Notes: a model not told the origin generated them from the letters alone. A stretch of 32,000 nt of DNA from Xylanibacter ruminicola 23 (GCF_000025925.1 NC_014033.1:420001-452000); one strand, 5' to 3'; positions 2-19,137 are shown, counted from the stretch's first letter. Program-made: numbers and translations.

Positions 2-205
2 GTCATCAAGGACAAGGAAGCTGCCAGTCGTTTCTTTGAACAGTGTGATGGTCATGCGAGGTCCAGAATCCGTAAATACTTAGACCGCCAGGAGAAGAGT
101 ATTCAGGAGTTACTTGTCAAATGGACCACTTCGCCCGAAGACTGCTGGTACAAGATGCTTGAGAGCGAAGGCATACCCCTTATGATGCCTATAAAGGATT
201 CATAA
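2..205 (+). CDS. 3' end of an unidentified protein-coding gene (5' part outside the window)
   Basis: Frame 2 is open from the window edge to TAA at 203-205 (...KMLESEGIPLMMPIKDS*). It is followed by repeat A and a hairpin. Confidence 0.5.
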   Translation, partial: VIKDKEAASRFFEQCDGHARSRIRKYLDRQEKSIQELLVKWTTSPEDCWYKMLESEGIPLMMPIKDS

Positions 206-272: not shown

Positions 273-304
273 TTCCCCTCAAATCCATGGTGGTTTGAGG
301 GGAA
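273..304 (+). terminator. Hairpin (11-bp stem TTCCCCTCAAA/TTTGAGGGGAA, 10-nt loop), copy 1 of a repeated hairpin element
   Basis: The stem is perfect. The same stem recurs at 3156-3189 with the loop approximately reverse-complemented, so that copy is inverted. Confidence 0.6.
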
Positions 305-340
305 ATTTCTGTTTTGTACATGCTCTCCAATAAAAAACTC

Positions 341-395
341 AAAAAAAGTTGCTCATATATGTTAGATATTCCATTTCTCGTGTGCTATATATATG
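341..395 (+). repeat. Cassette-leader repeat R1 (AAAAAGTTGC...GTTAGATATTCCATTTCTCGTGTGCTATAT)
   Basis: The core 361-390 matches 2311-2340 at 29 of 30 positions and matches 4363-4393 loosely. Each copy lies 60-95 nt upstream of a plus-strand start codon. Confidence 0.85.
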
Positions 396-453
396 AACGC
401 CGGTTCAAACAGCGATTTTAAATTCACATTATTAATATATAAATTTAGATTAT

Positions 454-2214
454 ATGGAAGCAAGAACCATTTCAATTAACGGAGTCATTCAGCGAAACAC
501 TTTGTTGCGTATCCCTTATTTCCAGCGTCGTTACGTTTGGGGTGAGGAAGACTGGAAACGCTTTGCTATCGACATGGAGTCGACTCTCGACAGCGACCGC
601 TGCTATTTCCTTGGTGCCATCATCCTCAAGGAGGAGCCTGTAACCATGGCTGACCGTCGTAATGGCATCGCCAAGCGCCAGTTAGTCATCGATGGACAGC
701 AGCGTCTTACTACTCTGAGCATCTTCATGAAGGTTCTTCACATGATGATTGGTAAGAACGATGATTTCGCAAATCAGTTCCTTCAGGCCGACGCCGTGAA
801 GTCGCCTGTCATCATCCACAGCTGCGATGATATGCCTCAGTTCAGCAACATCATGCATCTCGATGTCCCCAATGAATTGCAGGCCGACAGCAATATCGTA
901 AATGCGTACAACTACTTCCGTACATATCTCGAAGGTCGTCGTGCCGCTGGTGTTAACCTCAACGACTTGCTGAACACTATCAATGCCTGTGTTACTTTCG
1001 TTTCTATCTCTCTGACTCGTGACGACGACGAGCAGCAGATATTCGACACCATCAACTCTCTTGGCGTGCCCCTTACTACGGGCGACCTCATGAAGAACTT
1101 CCTCTACGAAGCTGCCGACGAGGCTGCCTATCGAGATAGCTGGCGCCCGATGTTCGATGTCGACGAGGCCCGTAAGTTCTGGGATGCTGATGCCTCTGCT
1201 GCTCATCATAGCAAGTCAAAGGATAATGCTACTATCGAGCGCTTCTTCCACGCATTCGTTCGCCTGAAGATGTGGGATTTCAAGGACCGTCTTACCGAGG
1301 CACAGCGCAAAAGCTTCGTCAAAGCCGAGAATATCTTCTCTACCTGCAAGGCATTTGTCGGTGAGTTCGGCATGGATAAGCAGCAGTTAGCCAAGGAGAT
1401 ACTCGAATACGCTAAGCTGTTTAAGGACAATCTCAATGAGGATATCCTCGATACCCGCATTCCTCAGCATGCTGGCATCAAGCGCATCTCGTGCATCATC
1501 AATACCACCAAGAACTACGTTGTTCTGCCTTATGTACTCTATGTACTCCACGAGGTGGCCGATGAGGCTGAGCGCAACAAGATATTCGATTATCTCGAAA
1601 CCTACCTTGTTCGCCGAATCATTACCAAGAATCCTAACAAGGACTATTTTGGCCTCTTCTCTGAGTACCTTATCTGCCAGAAGACTGTAACTTACGATGC
1701 GCTCAAGGCATACATCGAGGATAAGGATGATAGCAAGAACCTGGCCATGCCTTCAGATGCTCGTATCCGACTCGCTCTTAACAACAATAAGTTCGATGAG
1801 CAGTACGCACGCCTGATACTCTATCTGTTTGAGACGAAGCTTACCAAGACTTCTGACAACATGATGACTGGCGGTATTTCGGCCTACTATGCCGAGTCGT
1901 TCATGCCTCGCCCTTGCCTGACAGCCAATCCCAACTGGGCTACGCATACCGACCCTGCCGATGAGGAAAATCGTCGTCAGCTGATAGGTACTATTGGCAA
2001 CTACTTCCTGCTTAATATCTGTACCGAGAAGGGTTTGAAGAAGTATCATAATGAAGGTTTTGCTGCTAAGCTTACTGTGTTGAAGAAGTTCAGTCGCAAT
2101 ATCCGTAGCGGACACATTCTCGACTCTCTGCGTAATTGGGACGAGCTGGCCATCACTAATCGCAACAACACCTTTGCCACAGGTTTCTGCAAAACCATCT
2201 GGTCTCTTGATTAA
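454..2214 (+). CDS. DUF262 (ParB-like NTPase/nuclease) protein with a DUF1524-like C-terminal region; GmrSD-type restriction-like protein
   Basis: The N-terminus reads IPYFQRRYVWGEEDW and VIDGQQRLTTL (DGQQR signature). The C-terminus reads AESFMPRP...IGNYFLLN, which resembles the EHxxP...GNLxLL His-Me finger region but has Ser where the His is expected. Confidence 0.8.
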   Translation: MEARTISINGVIQRNTLLRIPYFQRRYVWGEEDWKRFAIDMESTLDSDRCYFLGAIILKEEPVTMADRRNGIAKRQLVIDGQQRLTTLSIFMKVLHMMIGKNDDFANQFLQADAVKSPVIIHSCDDMPQFSNIMHLDVPNELQADSNIVNAYNYFRTYLEGRRAAGVNLNDLLNTINACVTFVSISLTRDDDEQQIFDTINSLGVPLTTGDLMKNFLYEAADEAAYRDSWRPMFDVDEARKFWDADASAAHHSKSKDNATIERFFHAFVRLKMWDFKDRLTEAQRKSFVKAENIFSTCKAFVGEFGMDKQQLAKEILEYAKLFKDNLNEDILDTRIPQHAGIKRISCIINTTKNYVVLPYVLYVLHEVADEAERNKIFDYLETYLVRRIITKNPNKDYFGLFSEYLICQKTVTYDALKAYIEDKDDSKNLAMPSDARIRLALNNNKFDEQYARLILYLFETKLTKTSDNMMTGGISAYYAESFMPRPCLTANPNWATHTDPADEENRRQLIGTIGNYFLLNICTEKGLKKYHNEGFAAKLTVLKKFSRNIRSGHILDSLRNWDELAITNRNNTFATGFCKTIWSLD

Positions 2215-2245
2215 CATTGTTTCCATAATAAAGTTTAGGCGATTT

Positions 2246-2280
2246 TGTGCAGCCAGCTGTGAAGCCCGCTGCACATTTTT
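2246..2280 (+). terminator. Putative intrinsic terminator of the DUF262 gene
   Basis: An 8-bp stem TGTGCAGC/GCTGCACA (2246-2253 and 2268-2275) is followed by TTTTT at 2276-2280. Confidence 0.5.
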
Positions 2281-2345
2281 CCAAGAAAATGAAAAAAGTA
2301 GCTATGGAGTGTTAGATATTCCATTTCTCGTGTACTATATTATTG
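2281..2345 (+). repeat. Cassette-leader repeat R2
   Basis: CCAAGAAAATGAAAAAAGTAGC...GTTAGATATTCCATTTCTCGTGTACTATAT. This is near-identical to R1 and shares the CCAAGAAAA(A)T prefix with R3. Confidence 0.85.
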
Positions 2346-2385
2346 AGAGTTAGTTTTTAACAAGTTATTCTTTTAATTTTAAGTT

Positions 2386-3126
2386 ATGAACATAGAAAAG
2401 AAATTACCCAGACCCAGTGTAGAGAAACTGAATGAATTTGATGAACTATGCAAGCAAACGCATGCCACCGACCTTAGCAGCGAGCAGTATCAGAGTCTGA
2501 TTGACCAGGTGAACGACATCATTGTTTCGTACGATTTGAGCAACTATGTGTTCGAAAATCCTGCCACAGGCAAGAAGGGCGTGAAAAACCCTGCGGGTGT
2601 GGTGCTTGTTCCTGCCGATTACGATGAGTTCAATTTCGTAGGCGACCACAATATTTTCACTGTGTCTCATATTGCTGCCAAGAGGGGTGGTAAGTATGGT
2701 GTTGTGACTACCGACGGCACAGGCAAGGCGCTTTGTGACTTCCGCTTTGACTATCTGCAGTGGTATCCCTACGCAGGACTTTATCTGGCACGTTGGGACG
2801 GTGTCGAAGGAAAATTTGGAATGGTCAACAAGGATGGTAAGGTGTTTATTCCTAACGTGTTGACCAAGCTCTATGATCCATGGAACGACTTCATGCTCCT
2901 TGAGAGCGATGGAAAATTTGGTGGTCTTGATATCAGTACATTCTTCTTTGTAATGCCCGAGTACGACAATATTGATGCAGAACCTGACGAACTCGTTGTT
3001 TTCCACAAAGGCGGCGTCGAAGGCTACATTGTTGAGGAGACTGGCGAATTTATTACCAAGGAACAGTATGAAGACGATGAGCAATATGTCGATGCTTACG
3101 TTTACAATACGTATGTTAACCTCTAA
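2386..3126 (+). CDS. WG-repeat (KWG-like beta-repeat) protein
   Basis: The motif G-K-[YF]-G-x-[VL]-x(2)-D-G recurs: GKYGVVTTDGTG, GKFGMVNKDGKV, GKFGGLDIS, GVEGYIVEETGE. There is an acidic C-terminal tail and no signal peptide is evident. Confidence 0.7.
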   Translation: MNIEKKLPRPSVEKLNEFDELCKQTHATDLSSEQYQSLIDQVNDIIVSYDLSNYVFENPATGKKGVKNPAGVVLVPADYDEFNFVGDHNIFTVSHIAAKRGGKYGVVTTDGTGKALCDFRFDYLQWYPYAGLYLARWDGVEGKFGMVNKDGKVFIPNVLTKLYDPWNDFMLLESDGKFGGLDISTFFFVMPEYDNIDAEPDELVVFHKGGVEGYIVEETGEFITKEQYEDDEQYVDAYVYNTYVNL

Positions 3127-3155
3127 AATGACGGACAGATTGTTAGATAATAGAT

Positions 3156-3189
3156 TTTCCCCTCAAATCACCAAGGATTTGAGGGGAAA
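3156..3189 (-). terminator. Repeated hairpin element, copy 2 (inverted relative to 273-304), between convergent genes
   Basis: The stem is identical (TTCCCCTCAAA/TTTGAGGGGAA). It sits between the WG-repeat stop (3126) and the Macro-TIR stop (3193). Confidence 0.6.
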
Positions 3190-3192
3190 TGC

Positions 3193-4323
3193 TTACTGTG
3201 TTCGTAGGATATAGTCTAGACTTGTTTTCAGTTCTTTTTCAAATTCCGGTTGAATTGAATAATCAATCTGATTAACATTTACCAAATCCATGCGTAGTCC
3301 ATCACCGAATGGTGAATGGTCTAACATAATAGGAATGATATTTTTCTTGCATGTTATTGCATATTTTACTTCATTCTTAACATAAACGGATTTATTGGCT
3401 TGCTCAGAAGACATAAAGATAACCACTCTGGTGTTTTCGATGGCTTTTTCTATTACTTCTTTAAAATCATAACTACTGAATATTCCATTTTTGTCAATCC
3501 ATGTTTTAATACCCCATTTTTCAATAAGGTCTTTTACCGCAAAGGCTTTTTCAGATTCTTCACGCTTATAGCTGATAAAAACTTCGTGATCAGGGTTCTT
3601 ATAATAGGCTAGGTCTTCTTGTGACAGTTCGATAGGTTTCCTATCATACTCAACAGAATTGTTTTCTTGTTCCTTTATGAAATTGGCAATTGCAGATTTA
3701 AAAGCAAATATTTCAAAGATGTCAAATGCACTCATATCAAGTATGCTATAGATATAAACTTCCACTTCAATAGGTCGGTTTGTTTTTTGCAGTTGATTGA
3801 ATAACTCATCAGCCATTATTTCAACTACTGTTTTATACGGCATATGTGCAGAACCTGAACCAATAATGGGGAAAGCTATGGAACTAATCTGTAGGGCATG
3901 TACTAACTGGAAACATCTGTCAATACAACTTCTCACAATGTTATTAACTTTATCAGCATTTGGAACGTTTAATCCAGCCCAAGTTTCACTCAGATATTTG
4001 TCATCAATAGTAAGACAATGGAAAATGTGTTTCTGACTAAGCTCGCCAGCACATGAAACAACAACATTCCCGATTGTCGCAGGTAGTTGTTTCTGGGCAT
4101 CTTCTTGAATATTTTTGCCACCAGCGTGACTTATGGCCATTGAAACACCCCCACTCATAGTTAAAAGGGTATCATCGCTACTGACAATAACTTCAGATGT
4201 AGATTTTGTGATATCGCCAAACTTAATTGTTACAGAAGATGCATTGTATTTGTATGTACGACTTTCCTTTTCCATCTTTCTATTATCTTGATATTTTTTC
4301 CCGCAAATATACACCTTTTCCAT
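3193..4323 (-). CDS. Macro domain - TIR domain fusion protein
   Basis: The N-terminal half matches a macro fold pattern: IKFGDITKSTSEVIVSSDDTLLTMSGGVSMAISHAGG ... HIFHC ... SIAFPIIGSGSAHMP. The C-terminal half matches bacterial TIR: VFISYKREESEKAF...GIKTWIDK...VVIFMSSEQANKSVYVKNEVKYA...IIPIMLD, including the candidate catalytic Glu. The start is ambiguous among 4356, 4323 and 4275. I trimmed it to 4323 because 4331-4395 is the conserved intergenic repeat R3. Confidence 0.75.
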   Translation of the reverse strand: MEKVYICGKKYQDNRKMEKESRTYKYNASSVTIKFGDITKSTSEVIVSSDDTLLTMSGGVSMAISHAGGKNIQEDAQKQLPATIGNVVVSCAGELSQKHIFHCLTIDDKYLSETWAGLNVPNADKVNNIVRSCIDRCFQLVHALQISSIAFPIIGSGSAHMPYKTVVEIMADELFNQLQKTNRPIEVEVYIYSILDMSAFDIFEIFAFKSAIANFIKEQENNSVEYDRKPIELSQEDLAYYKNPDHEVFISYKREESEKAFAVKDLIEKWGIKTWIDKNGIFSSYDFKEVIEKAIENTRVVIFMSSEQANKSVYVKNEVKYAITCKKNIIPIMLDHSPFGDGLRMDLVNVNQIDYSIQPEFEKELKTSLDYILRTQ

Positions 4324-4330
4324 CTTTTTT

Positions 4331-4395
4331 CCAAGAAAAATCGGAAAAAGTTGCAATAATGTGTTAGATTATCCCCTTTTCGTGTACCAATATAG
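4331..4395 (+). repeat. Cassette-leader repeat R3 (diverged copy)
   Basis: CCAAGAAAAATCGGAAAAAGTTGCA...GTTAGATTATCCCCTTTTCGTGTACCAATAT. It lies in the divergent intergenic region between the Macro-TIR gene and the gene at 4421. Confidence 0.75.
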
Positions 4396-4420
4396 TATAG
4401 AGTGTTAATTAAATAACGTA

Positions 4421-5383
4421 ATGCGTATGATAGTAGATACAATGACCGACCTCGAATTGCTGTATGAGGTAAGAAAAGATTATGAAGAGTTCAGCGCTTA
4501 TTGGTTTACTTTGTGTCATAACCCTGTATATAAGAAACGAATGAAGTGGGGTAGACCAAAAGATGGCAAATTTGTCATTCGAATCAACGAATGGAAGTCT
4601 GCTAGAGGAAACCTGTACAATTTTGTTATTACGATGTCAGGTTGGAATGATTTTAAGAAAGGTAAATTCGAAACGTCTACTACAACATTCTTTAAGCGTA
4701 ATAAGGCTCTGAATGCTATCAGGTTGATGTTTTATCAGAATGACGTGCCTGGTATTGAGATTTTTACCTCTCATTTTATCGATAGGTATAATCTGCGTTT
4801 CCTTCATCAGCCATACCTTTCTCGTAAAGCAGCCTTGCAGCTATATCTGGATAATAACCATAAAACTGTCATCACGAGCTTCCGCTCCCCCAAATACGAT
4901 TGTAATGTGATGGCAGCCGCTACCGAAGGTTATTCATTGGGTAAATTCGAAAATGACATCTTGTTGCATAAGACGTTTGTTTCTCGCGATATGCTCTATG
5001 GCAACCAGTTCGCTGATGCTGATCTTCTTGACGAAGTTTTTGCCGACTCTCATGATGGCCCAAAATCTAACATATTCACTCTTGTTGATGACTTCTCAGC
5101 CTTGTTAAACAAAGAAAAGACCGTCCCTACGATTGCTGAATTTGATCAATTTTTTGAGTTGGCTTCAAAGTACAAAGCCAAATTGGAGGATTTGGAGTAT
5201 GAAGGCAAGGAGTTCGACTTGGAATCACAGGAACTGCAGAATCAGTTTTTGTTGATGTGTGCAGGTATCGATTGGTCTAAGGGCCAGGCAAAAGATGAGG
5301 ATGGCAATCTGATTAATTTCCCTATGATGAAGCAATTGTCTATGATTCTGGGAGCCAATAACAACCTTTGGGGCAACCAGTAA
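4421..5383 (+). CDS. Hypothetical protein (320 aa), no recognisable motif
   Basis: Long ORF preceded by repeat R3 and divergent from the Macro-TIR gene. The start could be 4421, 4427 or 4442. Confidence 0.7.
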   Translation: MRMIVDTMTDLELLYEVRKDYEEFSAYWFTLCHNPVYKKRMKWGRPKDGKFVIRINEWKSARGNLYNFVITMSGWNDFKKGKFETSTTTFFKRNKALNAIRLMFYQNDVPGIEIFTSHFIDRYNLRFLHQPYLSRKAALQLYLDNNHKTVITSFRSPKYDCNVMAAATEGYSLGKFENDILLHKTFVSRDMLYGNQFADADLLDEVFADSHDGPKSNIFTLVDDFSALLNKEKTVPTIAEFDQFFELASKYKAKLEDLEYEGKEFDLESQELQNQFLLMCAGIDWSKGQAKDEDGNLINFPMMKQLSMILGANNNLWGNQ

Positions 5384-6306: not shown

Positions 6307-6344
6307 CCTTTCCTGTACATATGAATAAATGAATAGTTGAATAG
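6307..6344 (+). repeat. Copy B of the ~36-bp direct repeat (CCTTTCCTGTACATATGAATAAATGAATAGTTGAATAG)
   Basis: It aligns with copy A (237-272) and copy C (26340-26376). Similarity to A extends about 10 nt upstream (GTGATACC). Confidence 0.85.
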
Positions 6345-6394: not shown

Positions 6395-8407
6395 ATGCCA
6401 ATATTAGAAAAAAACTGTAAATGGATATTTGGGCACCAAGACGACGTGAATGTTAAGGGACCTAATAATTCCACAATGATGTCTTTCAAGGATGATAATT
6501 TCCATTCCTTAGTAAGAGAATCCATCCAGAACTCTTTGGATGCTGTTGACGACAAAAACCAACCAGTTAATGTTTCATTTACTTTGAGACAATTTGATGG
6601 AATGGAGTATCCTTCGTTCTTTGATTTATACAAGCATATACAAGGATGTTTAGACAAGTTCCCTGTACAGGGAGAACCTCTTTACAGGCCTATGCTACGT
6701 TATTTTGCCTCATCACGATTGAATCAGAGTATTAATTATTTGAAAATTACTGATTCCAATACTAAAGGTATGGAATACGATAAAAAAAATGATAATTCTG
6801 GATTCAATAGATTTATAGCTGAAGGTGTCGCTCAAGATGCGGAAGGGGCAGGTGGAGCATTTGGATTTGGCAAGAATGCATTTTGGTCTTTATCACCAAT
6901 TAGTACGGTCTTCGTCTCTTCTCAAGCAAAGAATGGGGAGGCTTGTTTCGCTGGAATATCAAAATTGTGTACGCATGTTGTTGATGGAGAACTGTTACTT
7001 CCTTATGGAAAATATACATCAAATGGAGAAGTCGTTCTGACAAAGAAAGAAGATATTCCAGAAACCTTCACACCAAAGGCTACTGGAACGTCTGTATTTG
7101 TATTAGGAATTGATTCGGTAGATGAAGATGCTTTAATTAAGGCGGTTCTTCGAAATTTCTGGATGGCCATCTATAAAAAACAACTCACCGTAAAGGTTGA
7201 ACAGAAAGTAATAGATAGTGACCATCTGGAAGATCTTATGTGTCATTATTTTGATGAAGAAAATCCGAATCTCGATAAGAATTACGAATACAATCCCAGA
7301 GTATTCTATGAGATTGTTAGAAATGCAGAAAAAAGTGTTGATGGTTATAAAATCATCGAAGAACCTGTTCTGATGGATGGCAAGAACTGCGTGTCTAAGC
7401 TATATATTCATCTGAAGAATGATGCACAAGGTCAGGTCGTCTTCATGCGAAGTCAGATGATGACTATTTTTACAGAGCGAAGAAAGTGCAAAGGAGCTGA
7501 AGGTGTGTTCGTTTGTGATTCGGAAGATGGCAACAGGTTCTTAAGAGAACTAGAAGATTATACTCATAGTTCATGGTCAAGAAAAAACTATGGTGCAAGA
7601 AACCATACTAACCTAATCGTGGCATCTCGTGCACTTAAGGCAATTGACACTTTCATCCTAGATTCTGTTGCGAAGGAATTACAGCAGGGAGCGCAGGAGA
7701 CTGAGCAGGTGGCAGGTCTTGATAAGATTCTGACTATCCTGACTCCAAAGGGTGTTGATGACGAATCCAAGAAAGACGATATTGTTGATTTGGAGAATTA
7801 TAAGGACAAACCCAATCCCCCCAAAAAAGATAAGAAAGAAAAGCCGAAAACGATTCGTCAGCCCCGTCAGACTAAAGCAAAATTCGATCCACAAGGACGT
7901 CTGCGTTCGAATAGTGGAGGCAGAAGGAAGGTACGCCCTATAAAACCTGGTCCTGTGAAACCTGGATCACTAAAAGGTAAATCAATCGAATCTACAGATG
8001 GCAAAATGGGTATTTATGCAGTACCTATAGATGTAAGCTATCGCACTTGGAGTGAAGAAGACGGCAATGGTACTGTTTGGCATGTAGTCCGTTTGTTCTC
8101 TGATAAGGATATTGATAACGCGTTGGTTCAGCTTTATGCCGTCGACGAAGAAGGAAAGAAGATGGGTTTGAATATTATTGATGCCGGAGAGTATGATGTG
8201 CGCCCGGGTGAAGAATTCGTCGATTCTACTGATTTTGATGATTCTGAAACTGATTCCGAATCTACTACAAAGCAGGTAAACAACGCAATCTCCGGTGTTT
8301 CAATTCAAGCTAATATACCAAAAACGATTAAGGTGCGTTTTAATTCTAGTTTAAAATACTCACTAAGTATTGATACCGATAAAATAGAAGATAGCGATGA
8401 AGATTAA
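6395..8407 (+). CDS. GHKL-superfamily (Hsp90/MORC/HATPase_c_3-like) ATPase with a K/P-rich linker and an uncharacterised C-terminal domain
   Basis: N-box: RESIQNSLDA (E42, N46, D49). G1-like: ITDSNTKGM. G2-like: GAGGAFGFGKNAFW. A basic low-complexity linker (KDKPNPPKKDKKEKPKTIRQPRQTKAK...RRKVRPIKPGPVKPGSLKGK) spans about 7786-7980. The C-terminal domain ends in an acidic stretch (DSTDFDDSETDSES). Confidence 0.75.
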   Translation: MPILEKNCKWIFGHQDDVNVKGPNNSTMMSFKDDNFHSLVRESIQNSLDAVDDKNQPVNVSFTLRQFDGMEYPSFFDLYKHIQGCLDKFPVQGEPLYRPMLRYFASSRLNQSINYLKITDSNTKGMEYDKKNDNSGFNRFIAEGVAQDAEGAGGAFGFGKNAFWSLSPISTVFVSSQAKNGEACFAGISKLCTHVVDGELLLPYGKYTSNGEVVLTKKEDIPETFTPKATGTSVFVLGIDSVDEDALIKAVLRNFWMAIYKKQLTVKVEQKVIDSDHLEDLMCHYFDEENPNLDKNYEYNPRVFYEIVRNAEKSVDGYKIIEEPVLMDGKNCVSKLYIHLKNDAQGQVVFMRSQMMTIFTERRKCKGAEGVFVCDSEDGNRFLRELEDYTHSSWSRKNYGARNHTNLIVASRALKAIDTFILDSVAKELQQGAQETEQVAGLDKILTILTPKGVDDESKKDDIVDLENYKDKPNPPKKDKKEKPKTIRQPRQTKAKFDPQGRLRSNSGGRRKVRPIKPGPVKPGSLKGKSIESTDGKMGIYAVPIDVSYRTWSEEDGNGTVWHVVRLFSDKDIDNALVQLYAVDEEGKKMGLNIIDAGEYDVRPGEEFVDSTDFDDSETDSESTTKQVNNAISGVSIQANIPKTIKVRFNSSLKYSLSIDTDKIEDSDED

Positions 8408-9263
8408 TAGTTCTTTTCCCCATCCAGTATTAGGGGTTAATAAAGGTGTTATGCCAGATCTTGAGGACGATGCGTTGCAGCTTGTCTCGATAGATGAAAC
8501 TTCCGATACATATGTATATAATTTTGCATTAAAGCAAAATAATGACCAGATTACGCAGTATATAACAGAGAAGCGTGCTAAGTATGTATGCGAGGTTGAT
8601 TGTGTTAGGACTTTTTATAAGGACACGTTTTCTTATGAAACTTCTGATATCAAAGTCGAAATTAAGAAAGCAAATGTTACAGGTCATGTTGATTTCTATT
8701 TTTATATAGTAACCAAGTTTGGACTTCCTGCTTATACAAATAGGTTTAATGACGACTATCGTGATCCTGACACAGGCGCGATGCCTTCGTTTAAGTTGGA
8801 TACCGGAGCTGTTCTCGCTGCGTTTGGGAAATATAGCGACGACGTAAATACTCGTTTTAATAACAAGCCCGACCTGAAATCATTCATACAGGTAGTTAAA
8901 CGTCAAGATACTGAGAAGAATGTTGATATCACGTTGACTAACGATACCATCAACATAGAGCTACCTGTGGATATGTTTACCGACTTCGTTGCATTTAACC
9001 AGGATCAGTATAGAGGCATTTTCTACACATCTTTGATTTTTAATGCTCTTGTAAAAGGCATTTTGAATCTTGAAAAGAAAGAAGACTCTACATGGGCTGA
9101 TAGTATTAAGGCTATGGTCGAGGCGAGTCCTGATAAATACAAAGGCTTGTCATTAGATGAACCAACTGATGCTGTTGATATTGCAACTATTATGCTATCA
9201 AATATAGCATATGGGTCACCTTACGATTTGTTATTTAAGTGTATTAATGAACTCCAAGTATAA
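8397..9263 (+). CDS. Hypothetical protein (288 aa), second gene of the GHKL operon
   Basis: The ATG at 8397 overlaps the upstream stop (8405-8407) by 11 nt. I recognise no motif. Confidence 0.7.
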   Translation: MKINSSFPHPVLGVNKGVMPDLEDDALQLVSIDETSDTYVYNFALKQNNDQITQYITEKRAKYVCEVDCVRTFYKDTFSYETSDIKVEIKKANVTGHVDFYFYIVTKFGLPAYTNRFNDDYRDPDTGAMPSFKLDTGAVLAAFGKYSDDVNTRFNNKPDLKSFIQVVKRQDTEKNVDITLTNDTINIELPVDMFTDFVAFNQDQYRGIFYTSLIFNALVKGILNLEKKEDSTWADSIKAMVEASPDKYKGLSLDEPTDAVDIATIMLSNIAYGSPYDLLFKCINELQV

Positions 9264-9274
9264 CAGGAATAGAT

Positions 9275-10081
9275 ATGGAATTACAAAGAATTTTTACACC
9301 AGAATATGTCAATCAGTTGGTAAACGACATAAATCCCGATAACTATAAAGGCGATATTGCTATTTATAATGCCAATGAAGTTAGGCGCTTAAAGGGAGTA
9401 GAGAAGCCAGATGGGTTATTGGAGAAAATGCTGAATGCTGCTGATGAATATGAAGCAGCTATACATCTGTACGAGGCATATAAAAGCATCAGTCCAGTTG
9501 TTGCTGCCAGCCGCTCGTTCTGGATATATCTTACGCATGTTGATTTGTTTAAGTATGTTAAGCGCGAATGGCCCTATTTGGAGATTTACGAGGTAGATCA
9601 TAAATTCAGAAAACAGAAAAGGGGTGATAAACGTTCAGAAACAGATATGAAAAAATATATTCTCGATCATTGGATGATTTCCCCTAATGGTTTAATGAGA
9701 ACTTCATTGATGAATCTGTGGTGGTCTGTATATCTTACTGTCGATGAGTCATTGGGTGATGACCATAAATACGATCTTACGAAGGTATTCTTCAGTAATA
9801 ACGGTATGCGTACTCGAAGATTGGGAACAGGTCATCTTGGCCGCAATAAAGAAGCTCTTAAGGGTATACTTACTTTTATGAAAGACAATCCTGATGTTTT
9901 CGAAAGTGGTTTGGAGAATCGTATGATTTGGATAACTCGCCATTTTAATCTAATTGGCGGTACAAAGCCTTTGGCAAATCTACCTTACACTTTCTTTAAG
10001 CGCGAACTTGAAAAGAATCGTGATCTTTTGAAGGGTATTAGCAAACGAGAAGATGTGATGGGACCAAATGCTATTATCTAG
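9275..10081 (+). CDS. Hypothetical protein (268 aa), third gene of the GHKL operon
   Basis: It starts 11 nt after the upstream stop. The protein is W-rich and basic with no recognised motif. It is followed by a hairpin at 10084-10116. Confidence 0.7.
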   Translation: MELQRIFTPEYVNQLVNDINPDNYKGDIAIYNANEVRRLKGVEKPDGLLEKMLNAADEYEAAIHLYEAYKSISPVVAASRSFWIYLTHVDLFKYVKREWPYLEIYEVDHKFRKQKRGDKRSETDMKKYILDHWMISPNGLMRTSLMNLWWSVYLTVDESLGDDHKYDLTKVFFSNNGMRTRRLGTGHLGRNKEALKGILTFMKDNPDVFESGLENRMIWITRHFNLIGGTKPLANLPYTFFKRELEKNRDLLKGISKREDVMGPNAII

Positions 10082-10298: not shown

Positions 10299-11030
10299 TT
10301 ATTTTTTCTTTTTCTGACGCATAGAATCACCTTTTAATTCAATTTTATTCGCATTTGACACCAATCTGTCCATGATGGCATCGGCCAGAGTGGGATCTCC
10401 TATGTAGTCATACCATTTATTAATAGGCAGCTGAGAGACGATGATAACGGACTTCCTCTCATACCTTTCTTCTAGTATCTGCAGCATGGCCAGACGTGTG
10501 TTGGTGTCCATTGGTTGCAGTCCAAAGTCATCGAGTATAAGCAGGTCGTTCCGCTCAAGTGAAGTGATCATTTTCAGGAAGGTACCATCGAGCTTGCTGA
10601 GTGCCACCTTCTCTACGAAGCTGTTCATATTGAGGTAAGCCGTCCTGTATCCTAACATACAAGCCTGGCGCCCTAAGGCGCAGGCAATAAAAGATTTTCC
10701 ACATCCGCACTTGCCCTGTATGAGCAAGTTCTCATGGCGACGTATAAAGGAGCAGTCTGCAAATGCTGCAAGATCGTCCTTCGTAAAGTTACGGTCCGTG
10801 CCGCAGATAACGTCCTCTATCAGTGCGGTATATCTTAATCGACTAGTCTTGAGATACATCTCTGTCTTGCGGTTCCTTCTGTCCTGAGCTTCTGCCTCTG
10901 CCAGCCTGGCTATAGTTGCTTCCATTGCTGGGCGGTTCTGTACTGGCAGACTGAGGATTGACTCAAAAGCATCTGCCATGCCCTTGAGTTTGAGTTCTCT
11001 GAGTTGTATAACGGTTTCTTGTGAGTTCAT
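10299..11030 (-). CDS. istB: IS21-family helper ATPase IstB
   Basis: Walker A reads LIQGKCGCGKSF and Walker B reads LLILDDFG. It lies immediately downstream of istA. Confidence 0.9.
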   Translation of the reverse strand: MNSQETVIQLRELKLKGMADAFESILSLPVQNRPAMEATIARLAEAEAQDRRNRKTEMYLKTSRLRYTALIEDVICGTDRNFTKDDLAAFADCSFIRRHENLLIQGKCGCGKSFIACALGRQACMLGYRTAYLNMNSFVEKVALSKLDGTFLKMITSLERNDLLILDDFGLQPMDTNTRLAMLQILEERYERKSVIIVSQLPINKWYDYIGDPTLADAIMDRLVSNANKIELKGDSMRQKKKK

Positions 11031-11046
11031 AATTATAATTTTGATG

Positions 11047-12600
11047 TTAGATATTAAATGCTTCTGCTCCCCTTACGTAGTCGTTCTGGGGCATCTGTGA
11101 TACAGGTTCCTGATCGCCTGCCATGTCGAGGTTCTTCTCCAGGATATTCTTTATCATCGTATAGTTGACAGACCTATATCCAGCAAGCCTTTTGCAAGCA
11201 TTCTCAAGTCTTATACTGCCATATCTGCGATTCAGACTGAGTACGCCATGACATGAGCCATAATTCTGCTCTACATGTCTGCTACGCTTAAGAATCGCCT
11301 CCATAGCCTGTCTTGTATAAGGCCCGATTTCTTCCGACTTTTCCAGGAAGTAGGCTGCATTGCACGCCTTTGTACGCATGTATTCCAGATGCTCGGGAGG
11401 CATATCTTCATCATGGGTAAAGGGATCCTTGATGCCATAACGGTCGTGCGTACTGATACGTGTATTGCCAGCGTAGACCTCCACAGTGTCGATATCCCAT
11501 ACGACGGTAAGATGTTGTCCTACATACTGATATGGCACGCTATATTTACGGCCTGCCACTTGTACATGATAGTTACCTGACAGCTTGACCTCTTTGCGAT
11601 AACGGAAGCGGAAAGGAGTATCAGGCAGTTCTCCAAGAGATGGTTTCTCTTCTGCCTCAAAAATGTCAAAACGACTTCTGCCTGTAACTTTCGATGGTTT
11701 TGAGTTAAAATCATCCAGCAGTTCTGAAATACGGCTGTTCATGCTGTTCAGGTCACTGATAACCTCATCATGAAGAGGCGCATAGATAGCGTTGTAGATT
11801 TTCCTGACTGCACCTTCTACAGAGCCTTTATCGCGAGGTTTCCTTACGCGACACGCTTCAAGCGTTGTGTCGTAGTATGCAGCCCATTCTAGCGCAGCGT
11901 CAGTGAAAACAGGTTCGTAACGGTCGTTCTTCTTTACCCATTGCTTCATGTTGTCACTCTTGGCTCTGCGCACTGTCCCTCCAAAATAGCTGAAGGCATC
12001 AGATAAACCTCCAAAGAAATACTCCATAGAGGCGTCAGGAAGTGCCTTTGCATAAGCCATTCCACTGAAAGGAAGCGTGCAGACTAACACCACTACGCTG
12101 GTGATTTCGCCTGTCAGAGGGTCTGTTAGCCACAAGGCATCACCAGCAAAGTCAATCTGCATCTCTTCACCAGGCATATAGGTGTTATGAAAACTCAAGT
12201 TGTGGGCATACTGATAGTCACGGATAGCTTTCTTAAACTGAGTGTAACCATAGCCGTCGGGATGTTCACGCTTATAGTTCTCATGGAGATGCTGTATGGT
12301 CAGATAGCGGTTATGGGCCAGATCTGACACATAATCAGGAATCAGACCATCGAGGACAATTCTGGCATCAGATGGTGCTGATTCGGGTCTTGTTGACTTG
12401 AGGAACGACTCAAGGTCGACCTCGTTCATGCGGCCTCCATCTGCATACGACAGATGTCTTTCATCAGCCGCCTTCTTGTACTTGGCAAGTACGCCACGTC
12501 CCATGTGCAGTTGTCCACAGATTTCGCGGTGTGGGATGCTTGCCGCCAGCATTTGAAATGCTCTTTTTAACTTGCTCATTGTTACATTTTGGTTTGCCAT
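11047..12600 (-). CDS. istA: IS21-family transposase IstA (HTH + DDE)
   Basis: 517 aa. The N-terminal HTH-like region reads SIPHREICGQLHMGRGVLAKY and the central integrase-core region reads MQIDFAGD. Gene order and size are typical of IS21. Confidence 0.9.
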   Translation of the reverse strand: MANQNVTMSKLKRAFQMLAASIPHREICGQLHMGRGVLAKYKKAADERHLSYADGGRMNEVDLESFLKSTRPESAPSDARIVLDGLIPDYVSDLAHNRYLTIQHLHENYKREHPDGYGYTQFKKAIRDYQYAHNLSFHNTYMPGEEMQIDFAGDALWLTDPLTGEITSVVVLVCTLPFSGMAYAKALPDASMEYFFGGLSDAFSYFGGTVRRAKSDNMKQWVKKNDRYEPVFTDAALEWAAYYDTTLEACRVRKPRDKGSVEGAVRKIYNAIYAPLHDEVISDLNSMNSRISELLDDFNSKPSKVTGRSRFDIFEAEEKPSLGELPDTPFRFRYRKEVKLSGNYHVQVAGRKYSVPYQYVGQHLTVVWDIDTVEVYAGNTRISTHDRYGIKDPFTHDEDMPPEHLEYMRTKACNAAYFLEKSEEIGPYTRQAMEAILKRSRHVEQNYGSCHGVLSLNRRYGSIRLENACKRLAGYRSVNYTMIKNILEKNLDMAGDQEPVSQMPQNDYVRGAEAFNI

Positions 12601-12676: not shown

Positions 12677-12830
12677 GGTACCGATTCGAGCGCTACAGCG
12701 GTACCGATTGGTGCGCTACGCTGGTACCGTTTGGAGTGCTATGATGGTACCGATTCAAGCGCTGCGGTGGTACCGATACAAGCGCTGCGGTGGTACCGAT
12801 ACAAGCGCTATGATGGTACCGTTTCGCCGA
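12677..12830. repeat. IS21 subterminal repeat array, istA-proximal end (7 copies, exact 23-bp period)
   Basis: GGTACC cores lie at 12677, 12700, 12723, 12746, 12769, 12792 and 12815. Each is followed by GAT or GTT and a GCGCT-containing spacer. Confidence 0.85.
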
Positions 12831-13344
12831 TATTATCATCTTCATCTATTTTTGGGTAGGGGCGTGTAGTTATTCTATGATCCTGAAGCCAAATGTGGTT
12901 AAGTGTGAATGCAATGGATTCTATGGTCTTCTCTCGCTTCTTTGGGGATAACTCACATTCCCATACTGTGATGCAATGCCATCCCATTTTTGCCAGTTCG
13001 CGTTGTTCCTCCTTGTCTCGTTCTTTGTTCCTTCTGATTTTCGCCACCCAAAACTCTCTATTCGTGTTTGGGATCCTACAACATGCACTATCTGTTATTA
13101 ACTCATCTCTATTGGTTTGTAGCAATGCCACATGGTGCCCATGCCAGAAGCAGCCGTTTACAAAGATGCAAGTACGATACTTTCTTAGTACAAGGTCGGG
13201 ATGACCAGGCAACCGCTTATGGTTCAGCCTGTATCTGAATCCTCGTTTCCATAGCCCACGTCGCACAACCATCTCTGGCTTCGTATCCTTCGAGCGGATT
13301 GCTGCCATATTCTGATGGCGTTGTTGAAGTGAGAGGTGATCCAT
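12808..13344 (-). CDS. vsr: Very-short-patch repair endonuclease (Vsr), with its 3' end replaced by the IS21 terminus
   Basis: Motifs: RSKDTKPEMVVRRGLWKRGFRYRL, LPGHPDLVL, IFVNGCFWHGH. The last 10 codons (DDNIGETVPS*) are read from IS sequence. Joining the flanks across the TSD restores ...KIDEEDFPMLKAAEEMTNK* in frame, ending at 10115. Confidence 0.85.
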   Translation of the reverse strand: MDHLSLQQRHQNMAAIRSKDTKPEMVVRRGLWKRGFRYRLNHKRLPGHPDLVLRKYRTCIFVNGCFWHGHHVALLQTNRDELITDSACCRIPNTNREFWVAKIRRNKERDKEEQRELAKMGWHCITVWECELSPKKREKTIESIAFTLNHIWLQDHRITTRPYPKIDEDDNIGETVPS

Positions 13345-13351
13345 ACAGATT

Positions 13352-15670
13352 CTATGCTTCTATCAGTTCTTTACCCTTTTTGAAGATAGGGGTTCCATAC
13401 CATTTCTCTTCCCAACCTTCTTCCAGTGTGCCTTCTTTACGTCTTTTCTCCATTTCTTCTATTCTGGCTGCCTCAATGATCTTCCTTAAATTAATTGGCT
13501 TGAAGTTACGTGGCATCTTCTTTATATTGTATACCACATAGTTTCCATCAGGATTGTTGTAACTAATCTTTCTCATATACTCTTCGCCACGTAGGTTATG
13601 GCCGTCAATACGATAAACCTCATACGAAGAATAATCTGTTCCAATCTCATATAATAATAGGTATTTTGCTGAAACAACATCTGGATCAACTTTCTTCACC
13701 ATACCGCTACGCTGAGACTTGTTACTATTTCTGCGGATGTTATACATCATATTTTGATGAATCCAATCCTGCTGGTTCTTATCTTTACGCCAACCTCCAA
13801 TCAGGAACACTTCATTTGCAACATTCTCAAATTCTATAAATTCATTAGTGGATGAGGTGGCACTATCCAGTTCAACCTCCAACTGGTATAATTTGTTTAA
13901 TTCGTCTGTAGGATTGGTATTCAGAGTATAGTGGCGTATGATAAAGTCCTGACTCAATTCTGCTAATAGCCTATGATTGTCCTCATAGAATTTCGCATTG
14001 TCTTCTATCCCAACATACATGAATTTCTCGTCGCTGTAAGGACGGAACACCTTGCCTATACTACTACGAAAATGCTTCTCAATAGCCCTATGCATTCCGT
14101 CAAGTGTCCGCTCGTCATTCTTGCCTTCGTCAGTATCGACCTTTGGCTTTAGCTGAAGTGAAAAGAAAGCATAATCATTCTTCAAGAATGATAATACATT
14201 CTCTCTGAATTTCTCCTTTGTTCTTTCCTTAAATTCTTTTTTCAGACCTTCGTTACTTTGTGCGTAAAGTGACAAGACAAAGAGGAAATTGATGTCGTAG
14301 TGTTGCAAAAGAAGAGTGTCTCTATCAAATAGGCGATTCTCAAAATGTCTTATGCTCTTTATCTCATCCCTTGCCTGAAGCTTATCCTCATAATACTCGC
14401 GATCCTCTTCTTTCTCGCTAATACGTGCCGAGATAAAGAAATTGGGCGTTATGCTGTATCCGTCAGTATCTTCATCCCTATAAATAAGATACGTCTTACC
14501 TATATTCTTACGTCGACCTTGTGCATCTTTCTCGTCCTCAAGGAATAAAGATAAATTATGTTGTATTACATTTCTTGCATACGTATATTGCTTGTATTCA
14601 GAATATTCTGCTACAGGCGCACCAATACCGTAATATTTTGAGTCACCAATATAGTATATTTTGTTCTTGTTAATCAAACCTTGGTATGCATATATATGGT
14701 CAACTCTCTTGCCGTCTTCCTGTGCTTTCAAGTCTCCAATGTCAAGTCCCTTATCTGATAGCAACTCATCAACCATAGACTCGAACACAATATGATAGTC
14801 TGTCACAATAAGGAAATCTTTATATTGTTTGTCGCTATGAATGCTTGTCGCCCTTTCAAAGAAATTATTACAAAGATTCCATAACTGGAGATCTTTGTCT
14901 GAGAAGTACTTGTATCGTATCTGTTTTAAACGAACTTCTCCATAATAATCTATCCAGTTTTCAAACTCCACATCAGTTAACAGTTCATAGTTGTAATTCA
15001 CTGTCACCTCAAATCCGAACACTCTCTTCATGTAGTTCAAGATGGAGTAGAATATTACCAACAGTTCTTCATCAAAGTTTACTTGTCTTTTCTTGTTTAC
15101 AAGGTCAAGATATATTGGAGTACCGTCTTGTATTATAGCATTTTCACGGCTTACGGTCTTTGTCCAATTTATCTTGTTCATTCCACTATGCATGTTCTTC
15201 ACTATAAAGGTGAAGTAATCAGGATTTTCTTCTTGGAACTTCTGCAAAGAAAGCATAATGTCCAAATAGGTGTTCGACACCTTGTCGCCTTGCATGCCAA
15301 CGGCACTGATGTCCTTCATCTTTACGATACCTGAGTCGGGATTCAACCTCACAAACTCTTTTAATCCCCGATATAACCAGACAGTAAACTTGTATAGGAA
15401 CTGATAGTCGCTTGTACCATACTCTGTGTTTTCCTGCAACTTCTCTACATCCACCACATCATTAGGGTTGTACCTGCCAAATAGCAATCCATTCTCGCTG
15501 AGTACGACTTTAGGTAGGAAGAATACACAATCACCAAGTTGTGCGCTATAGTAATAGCCCACATAGTTCTTGCTTTTCGTGCCATCCCTCCACGTCAAGT
15601 CGCCCATTAGTCGTCCAAGCGAGTCAATTGCTTTGGGACTGTAGTGATAACCCTCTATCAGTAGTTTCAT
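13352..15670 (-). CDS. McrC-like / LlaJI R2-type restriction endonuclease subunit (772 aa)
   Basis: It overlaps the stop of the upstream McrB-like gene by 4 nt (ATGA). A PD-(D/E)xK-like segment reads YYIGDSKYY. It is much larger than E. coli McrC as I recall it. Confidence 0.7.
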   Translation of the reverse strand: MKLLIEGYHYSPKAIDSLGRLMGDLTWRDGTKSKNYVGYYYSAQLGDCVFFLPKVVLSENGLLFGRYNPNDVVDVEKLQENTEYGTSDYQFLYKFTVWLYRGLKEFVRLNPDSGIVKMKDISAVGMQGDKVSNTYLDIMLSLQKFQEENPDYFTFIVKNMHSGMNKINWTKTVSRENAIIQDGTPIYLDLVNKKRQVNFDEELLVIFYSILNYMKRVFGFEVTVNYNYELLTDVEFENWIDYYGEVRLKQIRYKYFSDKDLQLWNLCNNFFERATSIHSDKQYKDFLIVTDYHIVFESMVDELLSDKGLDIGDLKAQEDGKRVDHIYAYQGLINKNKIYYIGDSKYYGIGAPVAEYSEYKQYTYARNVIQHNLSLFLEDEKDAQGRRKNIGKTYLIYRDEDTDGYSITPNFFISARISEKEEDREYYEDKLQARDEIKSIRHFENRLFDRDTLLLQHYDINFLFVLSLYAQSNEGLKKEFKERTKEKFRENVLSFLKNDYAFFSLQLKPKVDTDEGKNDERTLDGMHRAIEKHFRSSIGKVFRPYSDEKFMYVGIEDNAKFYEDNHRLLAELSQDFIIRHYTLNTNPTDELNKLYQLEVELDSATSSTNEFIEFENVANEVFLIGGWRKDKNQQDWIHQNMMYNIRRNSNKSQRSGMVKKVDPDVVSAKYLLLYEIGTDYSSYEVYRIDGHNLRGEEYMRKISYNNPDGNYVVYNIKKMPRNFKPINLRKIIEAARIEEMEKRRKEGTLEEGWEEKWYGTPIFKKGKELIEA

Positions 15671-18102: not shown

Positions 18103-18108
18103 TATGCA

Positions 18109-19137
18109 TTACTTAAAATATTCATTTTTAATCTGTTTTGCAACAACCTCAACTAAAACTGGAGGAACAGCATTGCCAATCAACCTCCATTGATCAGAGA
18201 ATTTGCCTAAGAATACATAATCGTCAGGAAAAGATTGAATCCTTTGGATTTCTTGTATTCTTAGGAAACGATTTTTCCAATGAAACGGTCCCATATTATT
18301 TGAAAAACTTGCCTGAATAGTCCATGAAGGCTTTTCTGGTGATAATTTTAAAAGGAAAGACCAATATCTTGACCTCCATTTGAAAATGGGTTCAGGATAA
18401 CCACGTTCTTTTGTAAAAAAGAGATAATTGTCACCGGGAGGGACAAGTTTCAACAATTCTTTGTGTTTTGAACCTGCCTGTTTATCTTTATCTTCAGGAA
18501 GATCAAAATCAATGTTTCCAATAACATCACCGCAAGTTACCCATTTCTTGTGAGTTTCATCACCTAACTCAGAATGGGTTTCCTCTGGGAAGATGAAATC
18601 TGGCATATCTTTACGTACGCCAACACATATAAAACGTTGCCTTATTTGGGGTACGCCGTAATTTGCTGCGTTGACCACACGATATACAATCTTATAGCCA
18701 AGCCTTTGGGATTCACTTTGTACCATCTCTAAAGCCGCCTGATGTGGTTTGTAAACAAACCCTGCAACATTCTCAAAGAAGAAGAATTTTGGTTTTAATT
18801 CTTCCAAAGCTCTAAAATAATTGCTTACAGTTAAGAATCCGCTTTCATCTTCAAGACCGCGTTTCTTGTCTGTTCTATAGAATCTGGACTTCGAAAATGG
18901 AGGACATGGAGGGCCTCCAACTAATCCGTCAATATCTCCGTACTTCTTCTTAATCTCTTTAAAATCGACATCGGCTATACTTGCACATACGACCTCTGCA
19001 TCAGGATAATTCGCTTTAAAACTATCGCACGCATTCTGCCAATTGTCATTGGCAAATACAGTTTGAAATCCTGCGTGACTGAAGCCTGTGTCAATACCAC
19101 CAACGCCAGAGAATATGCTAACTATTTTGGGTTTCAT
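18109..19137 (-). CDS. DNA (cytosine-5) methyltransferase (342 aa)
   Basis: Motif I IFSGVGGIDTGF, motif IV GGPPCPPFS, motif VI FFFENVAGF, motif VIII QIRQRF, motif X GNAVPP. Confidence 0.9.
   Translation of the reverse strand: MKPKIVSIFSGVGGIDTGFSHAGFQTVFANDNWQNACDSFKANYPDAEVVCASIADVDFKEIKKKYGDIDGLVGGPPCPPFSKSRFYRTDKKRGLEDESGFLTVSNYFRALEELKPKFFFFENVAGFVYKPHQAALEMVQSESQRLGYKIVYRVVNAANYGVPQIRQRFICVGVRKDMPDFIFPEETHSELGDETHKKWVTCGDVIGNIDFDLPEDKDKQAGSKHKELLKLVPPGDNYLFFTKERGYPEPIFKWRSRYWSFLLKLSPEKPSWTIQASFSNNMGPFHWKNRFLRIQEIQRIQSFPDDYVFLGKFSDQWRLIGNAVPPVLVEVVAKQIKNEYFK

Follow-up and report, generated by a model that had tools for sequence, protein, structure and literature searches.

Analysis of a 32,000-nucleotide stretch of DNA from Xylanibacter ruminicola 23 (GCF_000025925.1, NC_014033.1:420001-452000; hereafter the window) revealed an array of unrelated genes headed by copies of one repeat. 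A repeat search of the window placed three same-strand copies of this repeat (family D1; R1, R2 and R3) at 342-390, 2292-2340 and 4344-4392, ahead of the genes for a GmrSD-type restriction endonuclease, a 246-aa protein and a 320-aa protein, respectively, with a Macro-TIR gene on the opposite strand between the last two. R2 and R3 are 84% and 67% identical to R1, and a 23-nt core, GTTAGATATTCCATTTCTCGTGT, which occurred in none of 100 shuffles, is identical between R1 and R2. The GTTAGA of the repeat lies 93, 75 and 58 nt from the ATG of the gene that follows R1, R2 and R3. We propose that the repeat is a portable, non-canonical promoter and, at the same time, the recombination junction that frames exchangeable defence cassettes, a reading that we favor with moderate confidence.

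An earlier note on this DNA had described three repeats in one orientation, shortly upstream of three genes and without a TTTG/TAnnTTTG pair inside them, all of which agrees with the present analysis. Its written consensus does not extend to R3, which reads GTTAGAT-TATCCCC and gives no exact fit, and the fragment TGTTAGATAA at 3141-3150, which it took for a piece of the repeat, was not significant (nhmmer E=4.2). These observations were therefore confirmed in part. A further candidate copy, before the gene at 6395, was dismissed after alignment.

A fourth copy, R0, is found in the left flank of the window, which together with the window forms locus L004 (L004 position = window position + 9547). 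R0 lies between the divergent gene of an 877-aa Ser/Thr kinase and an operon encoding a 2',5'-RNA-ligase-like protein, PARG, NADAR, a sigma-70-family protein and a 409-aa protein whose gene extends with its 3' end into the window (2-205). The divergent intergenic regions that hold R0 and R3 are 168 nt and about 98 nt long, respectively, and R0, like R3, is flanked by an opposite-strand promoter of the usual kind, in this case TTTG-N19-TATATTTG.

Copies of the motif, which is 65-90 bp long (~70 bp as a promoter module), were found in seven island contigs that are independent of one another and derive from Xylanibacter ruminicola and metagenomes, excluding the possibility that the repeat occurs only in the window as a local duplication. 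A total of 23 distinct copies were aligned, and further copies were detected. Profile matches numbered four in L004 (within 8.2 kb), three in L006, eight in L009 (within 14.3 kb), four in L010, two in L012, three in L013 and three in L022. The L006/L007 island was reached through homologues of the sigma-70-family protein encoded beside R0 (sigma 84% and kinase 59% identical to those of L004), and its three variant copies precede genes for RmuC, a 319-aa protein and a 94-aa protein. A scan of metagenome contigs with a pattern from seven copies returned seven loci, including the real arrays of L009, L010, L012 and L013, which come mostly out of one assembly set; the other three (L011, L014 and L015) were rejected as chance matches within one coding sequence. 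Two motif patterns had no match among viral contigs, and a plasmid DNA search and a phage protein search found nothing close. An 18-base pattern, GTTAGATNNTCCNNTTNTCGTGT, had no Bacteroidales match among 185,579 species-representative genomes, a search limited by the narrowness of the pattern, which misses R0 and the GTTAGAA variants; its three matches, in unrelated phyla, were judged to be due to chance. The earlier note had also considered a generic promoter placed genome-wide before housekeeping genes. No copy before such a gene was seen in the sequence searched, which did not include a complete genome.

Alignment of the 23 copies showed a common layout, in which a nearly invariant AAAAAAGTTGC is followed by seven free positions, an invariant TGTTAGA, the block wTTCCACTTTTCGTGTaC, a TAtaTaTG-like box and GA(A/G)(A/C)G. 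All copies lie 58-93 nt upstream of a start codon or ahead of a leader lacking an open reading frame (ORF), and the leader subtypes found 3' of the motif recur among copies. Copies weak enough to be detected only by the profile still keep TGTTAGA. Because the blocks are conserved while the intervening bases vary freely, we attribute this pattern to selection for a function rather than to recent copying. The repeat is real, lineage-restricted and functional-looking.

The genes headed by the motif or interleaved with it are of the defence or conflict type. Motif-headed genes include those for GmrSD, RmuC, HD and DUF2130 proteins, and the GmrSD homologues in L010 and L012 are likewise motif-headed. 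Other island genes encode Mrr-like, Macro-TIR and other TIR, SprT-like, WG-repeat, PARG, NADAR and NUDIX proteins, and the island also encodes PD-T4-6-like kinases, a STAND/TPR protein and the proteins PDC-M33A/B/C. Neither Pfam nor PADLOC assigned a family to the 246-aa protein, which the earlier note had read as a WG-repeat protein, or to the 320-aa protein. The Macro-TIR gene probably starts at 4275 rather than at 4323 or 4356, judging from the L010 homologue, which starts at the equivalent position.

Comparison of the motif-headed genes with their neighbors pointed to a promoter. In the 17 ORFs concerned, the distance from GTTAGA to the ATG is 58-93 nt (median 79), with motif and ORF invariably on one strand. 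The TAtaTaTG box is thus 32-67 nt upstream of the ATG, a range shared with canonical -7 boxes, most of which occur at -13 to -66. A TAnnTTTG box within 130 nt was found for none of these 17 ORFs and for 27 of the 62 others (Fisher p = 3.5e-4); none of the 23 aligned copies contains a perfect TAnnTTTG, although neighboring genes have perfect boxes. Since R0 and R3 lie in divergent regions beside minus-strand TTTG/TTGG-N19-TATATTTG promoters, the plus-strand start must fall within the motif. Taken together, the position, the divergent regions and the mutual exclusion with TAnnTTTG indicate that the motif substitutes for the normal promoter.

In the arrangement we propose, an A-tract with GTTGC, resembling an UP element, would be followed by seven variable bases, by TGTTAGA at -33/-35, by the conserved spacer of ~19 nt and by the degenerate TAtaTaTG box at -7/-10. 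Transcription would begin a few bases past the box, near GAGAG, giving 5' untranslated regions of roughly 25-60 nt. The exact -35/-10 assignment is putative. The motif shares with sigma-A promoters an overall geometry, a distance to the start codon and a TA-rich -7-like box, but its -7 TTTG is never intact, its -33 element is the invariant TGTTAGA, and it has an extra spacer block and an upstream block. Measured against the canonical definition, TAnnTTTG with TTTG at 19-21 nt, it offers a TAtaTaTG-like box and TTAG instead. A sigma-54 promoter (TGGCAC-N5-TTGC) was rejected, as the motif reads TtCCAC-TTTTC-GTGTAC without the required GG (-24) and GC (-12) dinucleotides; genuine TGGCAC-N5-TTGCA boxes were seen only in phage-like relatives. 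A promoter of the extracytoplasmic function (ECF) type was rejected as well, there being no GAAC-like -35 element and the conserved CGTGT lying only 12 nt past GTTAGA, where a CGT-like -10 element would need a spacing of 16-17 nt. A TATAGGG/CCCTATA inverted repeat around the core of the L009-type copies was set aside because other copies do not keep it.

Many cassettes end in one of two reused terminator-like hairpins, T1 and T2 (coordinates and folding energies in Table 1). The T1 family (CCCTCAAAT..TTTGAGGG) has ten copies in four of the seven loci scanned (L004, L006, L009 and L022); the T2 family has eight copies in the loci scanned, and in six of the eight the motif follows at a fixed 30-39 nt. 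The T2 hairpin at 2247-2274 lies 37 nt before the GTTAGA of R2. The earlier note had placed a hairpin before every repeat, which is so for R1 and R2 but not for R3, which adjoins the start and promoter of the Macro-TIR gene. It had also matched the hairpins at 273-305 and 3156-3189 in opposite orientation, correctly, as they are 94% complementary; the second is the terminator of the Macro-TIR gene itself, 1.1 kb from R3. A small repeat, CCTTCCTGTACATGTGAATwAATGAAT, is found just past stop codons and, with a T1-type hairpin directly after two of its three copies, may belong to a longer terminator module.

Comparison of the loci with one another revealed that homology tends to begin and end at these constant elements. 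Among the ends of blocks with homology of at least 250 bp in all loci, 35 of 99 fell within -60 to +90 of the motif anchor, a zone that makes up 4% of the sequence. Left block ends clustered at -27 to -19 or at -3 to -1 relative to the anchor, and right block ends around -30, at +21 to +38 and at +60 to +76. For example, window 334-2281, comprising R1, the GmrSD gene and its terminator, matches L010, and window 339-2348 matches L012 up to the 3' edge of R2, with a different gene beyond. A second match to L010, window 3204-4423, takes in the Macro-TIR gene, the divergent promoters and R3 and reaches as far as the start codon of the following gene, whereas window 4336-5359 (R3 and the 320-aa gene) matches L006 15800-16835 at 75% identity from the 5' edge of the motif onward.

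The cleanest case is the near-identical strain L022 (93-97% DNA identity), which shows the swaps bounded by the repeat that the earlier note had proposed to look for, at the 3' edge of the motif and at terminator hairpins. One block shared by L004 and L022 ends in the last bases of R0, beyond which the LigT/ligase-like gene is replaced by two unrelated genes. The other runs from a T1 hairpin to the middle of the hairpin at 3156-3189 (window 3169), with different content beyond. Judging from these comparisons, the swappable unit is the leader plus its ORF or ORFs, held between a constant promoter and constant terminators. A cassette would read motif, leader, ORF(s) and one of the two terminator hairpins. 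Because the constant modules flank variable ORFs, we propose that they act as homology arms, such that recombination in or beside them would swap, delete or add cassettes; the scattered breakpoints fit homologous or illegitimate recombination at short constant modules.

Pfam detected no tyrosine or serine recombinase in the scanned ORFs of the window or in eight related loci, scans that covered 10-20 kb around the arrays, with the complete ends of some metagenomic arrays absent. The linked recombinase that the earlier note had suggested looking for outside the window was not found in L004, L006, L009, L010, L012, L013 or L022, and the sole transposase found belongs to an IS21 element (rve/IstB). 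The description of the repeat as an exchange junction therefore holds, with breakpoints at the motif and the terminators, but the integron-like mechanism does not, there being no integrase, no attC dyad and a promoter-like distance to the genes.

Two further observations concern L009. At 567-762, 6515-6734 and 10845-10930, this locus has the motif and a GmrSD-type leader without an ORF, and the first two of these units end in a GmrSD-type terminator. From their sequence they look like deletion scars, left by precise loss of the ORF, or short non-coding transcription units of about 130-150 nt. In addition, the L009 HD gene (2212-2721) begins with ATGATAGTA (MIV), the first three codons of the 320-aa gene, and in L006 (15903-17409) an HD gene that starts MEI follows the 319-aa gene. 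The L009 gene thus looks like an in-frame deletion that fused two adjacent cassettes, which would point to ordinary deletion rather than to one precise site-specific mechanism.

All long arrays (12-22 kb of sequence) contain a sigma-70-family gene. In L004 this gene lies at 7768-8484, 1.1-1.8 kb left of the window, and encodes a 238-aa protein (WP_013063081.1) that passes the general sigma-70 model, with a region 1.2, an RpoD/RpoS-like region 2 and a weakly matching region 4. This type-1 sigma, present in L004, L006 and L022, belongs to a small family that lacks region 3 where aligned and whose nearest outside relatives are Bacteroidetes RpoD proteins, at about 30% identity; L009 and L013 have a divergent type 2. 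In sigma-70 and RpoS, WWIRQ residues melt and recognise the -10 element, and TRER residues recognise the -35 element. The type-1 sigma has MMIRKY for WWIRQ (region 2.3/2.4) and PKSR for TRER (region 4.2), and the replacement of a near-universal WW and of TRER is unusual for a protein related most closely, beyond its own family, to primary sigmas.

The sigma operon is motif-headed in L004, L009, L013 and L022, suggesting a dedicated sigma factor with positive feedback. In this model the region-3-less island sigma would read the motif, R0 at the head of its operon would provide the feedback, and the defence genes would form a set co-regulated by that sigma. We regard this putative dependence as plausible, if somewhat less likely than not. 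A search of viral contigs with a sigma alignment returned only distant sigmas. On phage-like contigs, sigma homologues of 50-56% identity are preceded by textbook sigma-54-type boxes (TGGCAC/T-N5-TTGCA), at L008 9060-9200 and 9940-9970, L018 about 425-530 and about 1290, L019 200-300 and L020 about 225-245. One such box in L008 and in L018 is directly preceded by GTTAGAtt, and hand alignment of the combined element with the island motif gives about 77% similarity (GTTAGAttTGGCACgctttATGCACctaatat vs GTTAGATTTATCACTTTTCGTGCACGTAATAT); this likeness may reflect a phage origin of the sigma-promoter module, or coincidence.

Several points weigh against the promoter reading, the role of the sigma factor, or both. 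The promoter identity is well supported, but its activity is predicted from position only, and so conserved a spacer, which a plain promoter would not usually have, may mark an operator. TGTTAGA was demanded by the metagenome pattern, and its invariance is thus partly built in; restriction of the motif to the island is what the loci searched suggest, short of proof. Identity between sigma types 1 and 2 is only 21-26%, with differences in regions 2.4 and 4.2, and yet their arrays share nearly the same motif, as in L009 (type 2), whose motif matches that at L006_17413 (type 1). Two sigma types with one motif are a poor fit to a strictly cognate pair, raising the possibility that the sigmas are cargo. 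Moreover, the L006 sigma gene has a normal TATATTTG promoter rather than the motif, no sigma was found in L010 and L012 within the sequence at hand, and the phage-like relatives L008, L018-L020 showed no motif arrays, the L008 contig with its 56% identical sigma having no clear one.

We judge the main rival explanation unlikely. It holds that the motif is a weak sigma-A promoter with an operator, in which TTAG and TAtaTaTG are degenerate -33 and -7 elements, the blocks AAAAAAGTTGC, TGTTAGA and CCACTTTTCG are bound by a common regulator, a repressor or an activator, which turns the whole island on or off, and the sigmas are cargo. The succession of TTAG, about 20 nt and TAnnTnTG does match the geometry of TTTG-N19-21-TAnnTTTG at the same distance from the start codon, and the spacer is conserved as strongly as the putative hexamers. 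Furthermore, motif variants do not sort by sigma type, and of the four sigma-bearing contexts looked at closely, three have the sigma gene downstream of the motif. A shared DNA-binding regulator did not emerge, however, as protein clustering gave no family present in more than three of six loci and no helix-turn-helix family. Nor do the conserved blocks have the dyad or clear direct-repeat symmetry typical of operators, and a weak sigma-A promoter would sit oddly with the consistent loss of the perfect TAnnTTTG that neighboring genes retain.

Two other explanations appear far less probable. The motif could be a site-specific recombination site, either attC/attI-like or an rAID-1 repeat, used by a tyrosine recombinase encoded elsewhere, as its GTTAGAT fits the integron core GTTRRRY, the cassette boundaries coincide with it, and the rAID-1 arrays of Bacteroidales combine a recombinase with conserved intergenic motifs (10.1101/471110; PMC12247911). 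The GTTAGAA variants violate that core, though, the breakpoints are spread over both motif edges, terminator hairpins and start codons with no fixed crossover, and the motif stands 5' of ORFs at promoter distance, also in divergent regions. In addition, the 32-kb window and the loci examined have no transposase besides IS21 and no tyrosine or serine recombinase, and rAID-1 is reported in more than half of Bacteroidales genomes, among whose representatives the 18-base pattern had no match; we consider this explanation very improbable. The least probable alternative, by a little, is a conserved 5' leader or small RNA transcribed from upstream, acting as an attenuator or in antitermination, with the ORF-less units of L009 as small-RNA genes. 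It would account for the many copies 30-39 nt past a terminator hairpin, for the three L009 units of motif and leader, two of which end in a terminator, and for the leader subtypes common to several copies. Against it, RNAalifold on the 23 copies gave no consensus structure, no pairs and no covariation, single copies folded differently from one another and no better than shuffles (z -0.1 to -1.6), and Rfam had no match in the whole window at gathering thresholds. R0 and R3 moreover have no upstream plus-strand transcription unit and must contain the transcription start, and the ORF-less units look like scars, their two ends corresponding to the 5' leader and to the 3' terminator of the GmrSD cassette. 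Because there is neither a conserved fold or dyad nor a tyrosine recombinase in any locus, the motif is neither an RNA leader nor attC. Of the interpretations offered in the earlier note, a leader thus lacks support, whereas a shared regulatory site heading defence cassettes is borne out, as a promoter module, by position, by the exclusion of canonical promoters and by conservation across genomes; taken as a whole, the interpretation in the note was partly supported.

In how it would work, the island seems closest to defence islands controlled by a sigma factor of their own, such as that of Myxococcus xanthus, where the ECF sigma/anti-sigma pair DdvS/DdvA regulates two CBASS and a type III-B CRISPR-Cas locus (PMC11506125). 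As there, a sigma-70-family gene lies inside a defence island, and several units are proposed to be under one promoter type; an island sigma together with one promoter type before several units was found in L004, L006, L009, L013 and L022. Unlike DdvS, the island sigma is not of the ECF type, having regions 1.2, 2 and 4, an RpoD derivation and no region 3, and no anti-sigma partner was found for it. A further difference is that the island promoter is copied before many single-gene cassettes exchanged between strains, with a sigma dependence that is predicted from sequence.

The rAID-1 arrays have a XerD-like recombinase at their 5' end, short genes and type VI secretion immunity cargo (10.1101/471110; PMC12247911). 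The island resembles them in being an array of acquired protective genes in Bacteroidales, with repetitive intergenic motifs and signs of active gene turnover, but it lacks a XerD-like recombinase in the 10-20 kb around the arrays, some array ends being absent, and its cargo of nucleases, TIR proteins and kinases is of the anti-phage type. The defining arrangement of at least two co-oriented genes of about 100-300 codons with GC of at most 41% does not describe the island either: many of its genes exceed the 100-300 codons typical of rAID-1, the cassette genes of the window (246-670 aa) lie on both strands, and the GC content of island ORFs ranges from 0.31 to 0.55. With integrons the island shares unrelated genes parted by a repeat, a GTTAGAT that fits the core and a content that varies by strain. 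It differs in having no IntI (with attI and Pc) and no attC palindrome, and its breakpoints are spread out, as homologous recombination predicts. Integron cassettes, moreover, have no promoter and carry the repeat at the 3' end, in contrast to the island repeat, which stands upstream of the ORFs and would supply their promoter. In the minimal mobile elements of Neisseria and in defence hotspots between core genes, cassettes are exchanged through flanking homology. The island is similar in that variable genes lie between constant sequences with no need for a dedicated recombinase, except that its flanks are promoter and terminator signals of 35-90 bp repeated within the island rather than core genes. 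Membership is not established for sigma-controlled defence islands of the DdvS kind, for integrons, for rAID-1 or for the canonical sigma-A, sigma-54 and ECF promoter classes.

The neighborhood of the array contains further candidate defence genes (coordinates of the features of the array itself are collected in Table 1). A three-gene candidate defence system, PDC-M33A/B/C (E 1e-77, 1e-34 and 1e-17), occupies window 6395-10081 and has neither the motif nor TAnnTTTG within 130 nt upstream. An IS21-family element (10299-12600; IstA 517 aa, IstB 243 aa) lies directly after the cassette array, and beside it, at 12808-20321, are Vsr, LlaJI-like and McrB-like genes and two Dcm methylase genes. On the other side, the 877-aa protein encoded divergently from R0 (L004 3000-5633, minus strand; L006 11227-13857) has a C-terminal Ser/Thr kinase domain like PD-T4-6/mad6, and its gene is conserved beside the type-1 sigma in L004, L006 and L022, divergent from a motif copy. 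This kinase might act as a sensor for the sigma, or its gene might be a defence gene in its own right. The CapK/CapS kinase-repressor (PMC13373217), considered owing to the neighboring kinase, was rejected because its kinase is an anti-sigma kinase of the HATPase type that has a STAS partner, unlike the eukaryote-like, PD-T4-6-like Ser/Thr kinase found here.

Table 1. Positions of the repeat copies, cassette genes and terminator elements (window coordinates unless a locus is named).
Feature	Position	Strand	Evidence or remark
R1, proposed portable promoter module before the GmrSD/DUF262 gene	331-399	+	nhmmer 333-399, E 2.8e-16; family D1
R2, before the 246-aa gene	2281-2349	+	nhmmer 2283-2348, E 9e-17
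R3, divergent intergenic region ahead of the 320-aa gene	4333-4396	+	nhmmer 4334-4396, E 5.1e-17
R0, fourth copy, 3.8 kb left of the window	L004 5706-5771 (window -3841 to -3776)	+	
Canonical Bacteroidetes-type promoter TTGG-N19-TATATTTG of the Macro-TIR gene, abutting R3	4304-4334	-	sequence reading; promoter-scan match 4334-4306
GmrSD-type (DUF262/DUF1524) restriction endonuclease gene	454-2214	+	Pfam GmrSD_N 1.2e-34, GmrSD_C; PADLOC
246-aa cassette gene	2386-3126	+	conserved together with R2 in L022
Macro-TIR gene	3193-4275	-	Pfam Macro 7.6e-16, TIR_2 3.8e-17
320-aa cassette gene	4421-5383	+	L006 homologue (319 aa) has its own motif copy
T1 terminator hairpin (TTCCCCTCAAATC..GATTTGAGGGGAA) after the 409-aa gene	273-305	+	terminator-like; -20.2 kcal/mol, z -4.2
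T2 terminator hairpin (GTGCAGC..GCTGCAC + T-run) after the GmrSD gene	2247-2274	+	-18 kcal/mol, z -4.1
T1 hairpin, inverted, at the Macro-TIR 3' end	3156-3189	-	terminator-like; -22 kcal/mol, z -5.1; right breakpoint vs L022
Small repeat CCTTCCTGTACATGTGAATwAATGAAT	236-263; 6307-6334; L004 1981-2010	+ (236-263)	family D10, 89% identity

Extending the promoter and junction reading, we suggest, tentatively and as a somewhat unlikely whole, a recombinase-free plug-and-play system, in which the promoter and two terminator modules would admit any defence ORF through short homology into one sigma-run regulon. The region-3-less sigma, possibly phage-derived and under positive feedback, would switch the arsenal on together, for example upon infection, and the expression signals themselves would be the determinants of mobility. 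Although the concept has precedents, a plug-and-play frame and a sigma without region 3 are out of the ordinary. Both the co-regulation of systems within one defence island and the movement of single genes without a dedicated recombinase are largely open questions, for which this locus, in a host that is a cultured type strain, offers a testable case. If this proposal is correct, the module and its sigma could be used as a compact, orthogonal pair of promoter and sigma factor in the engineering of Bacteroidota and, because several motif-headed genes have no known family, the module would serve as a marker for new defence genes in rumen and gut Prevotellaceae.

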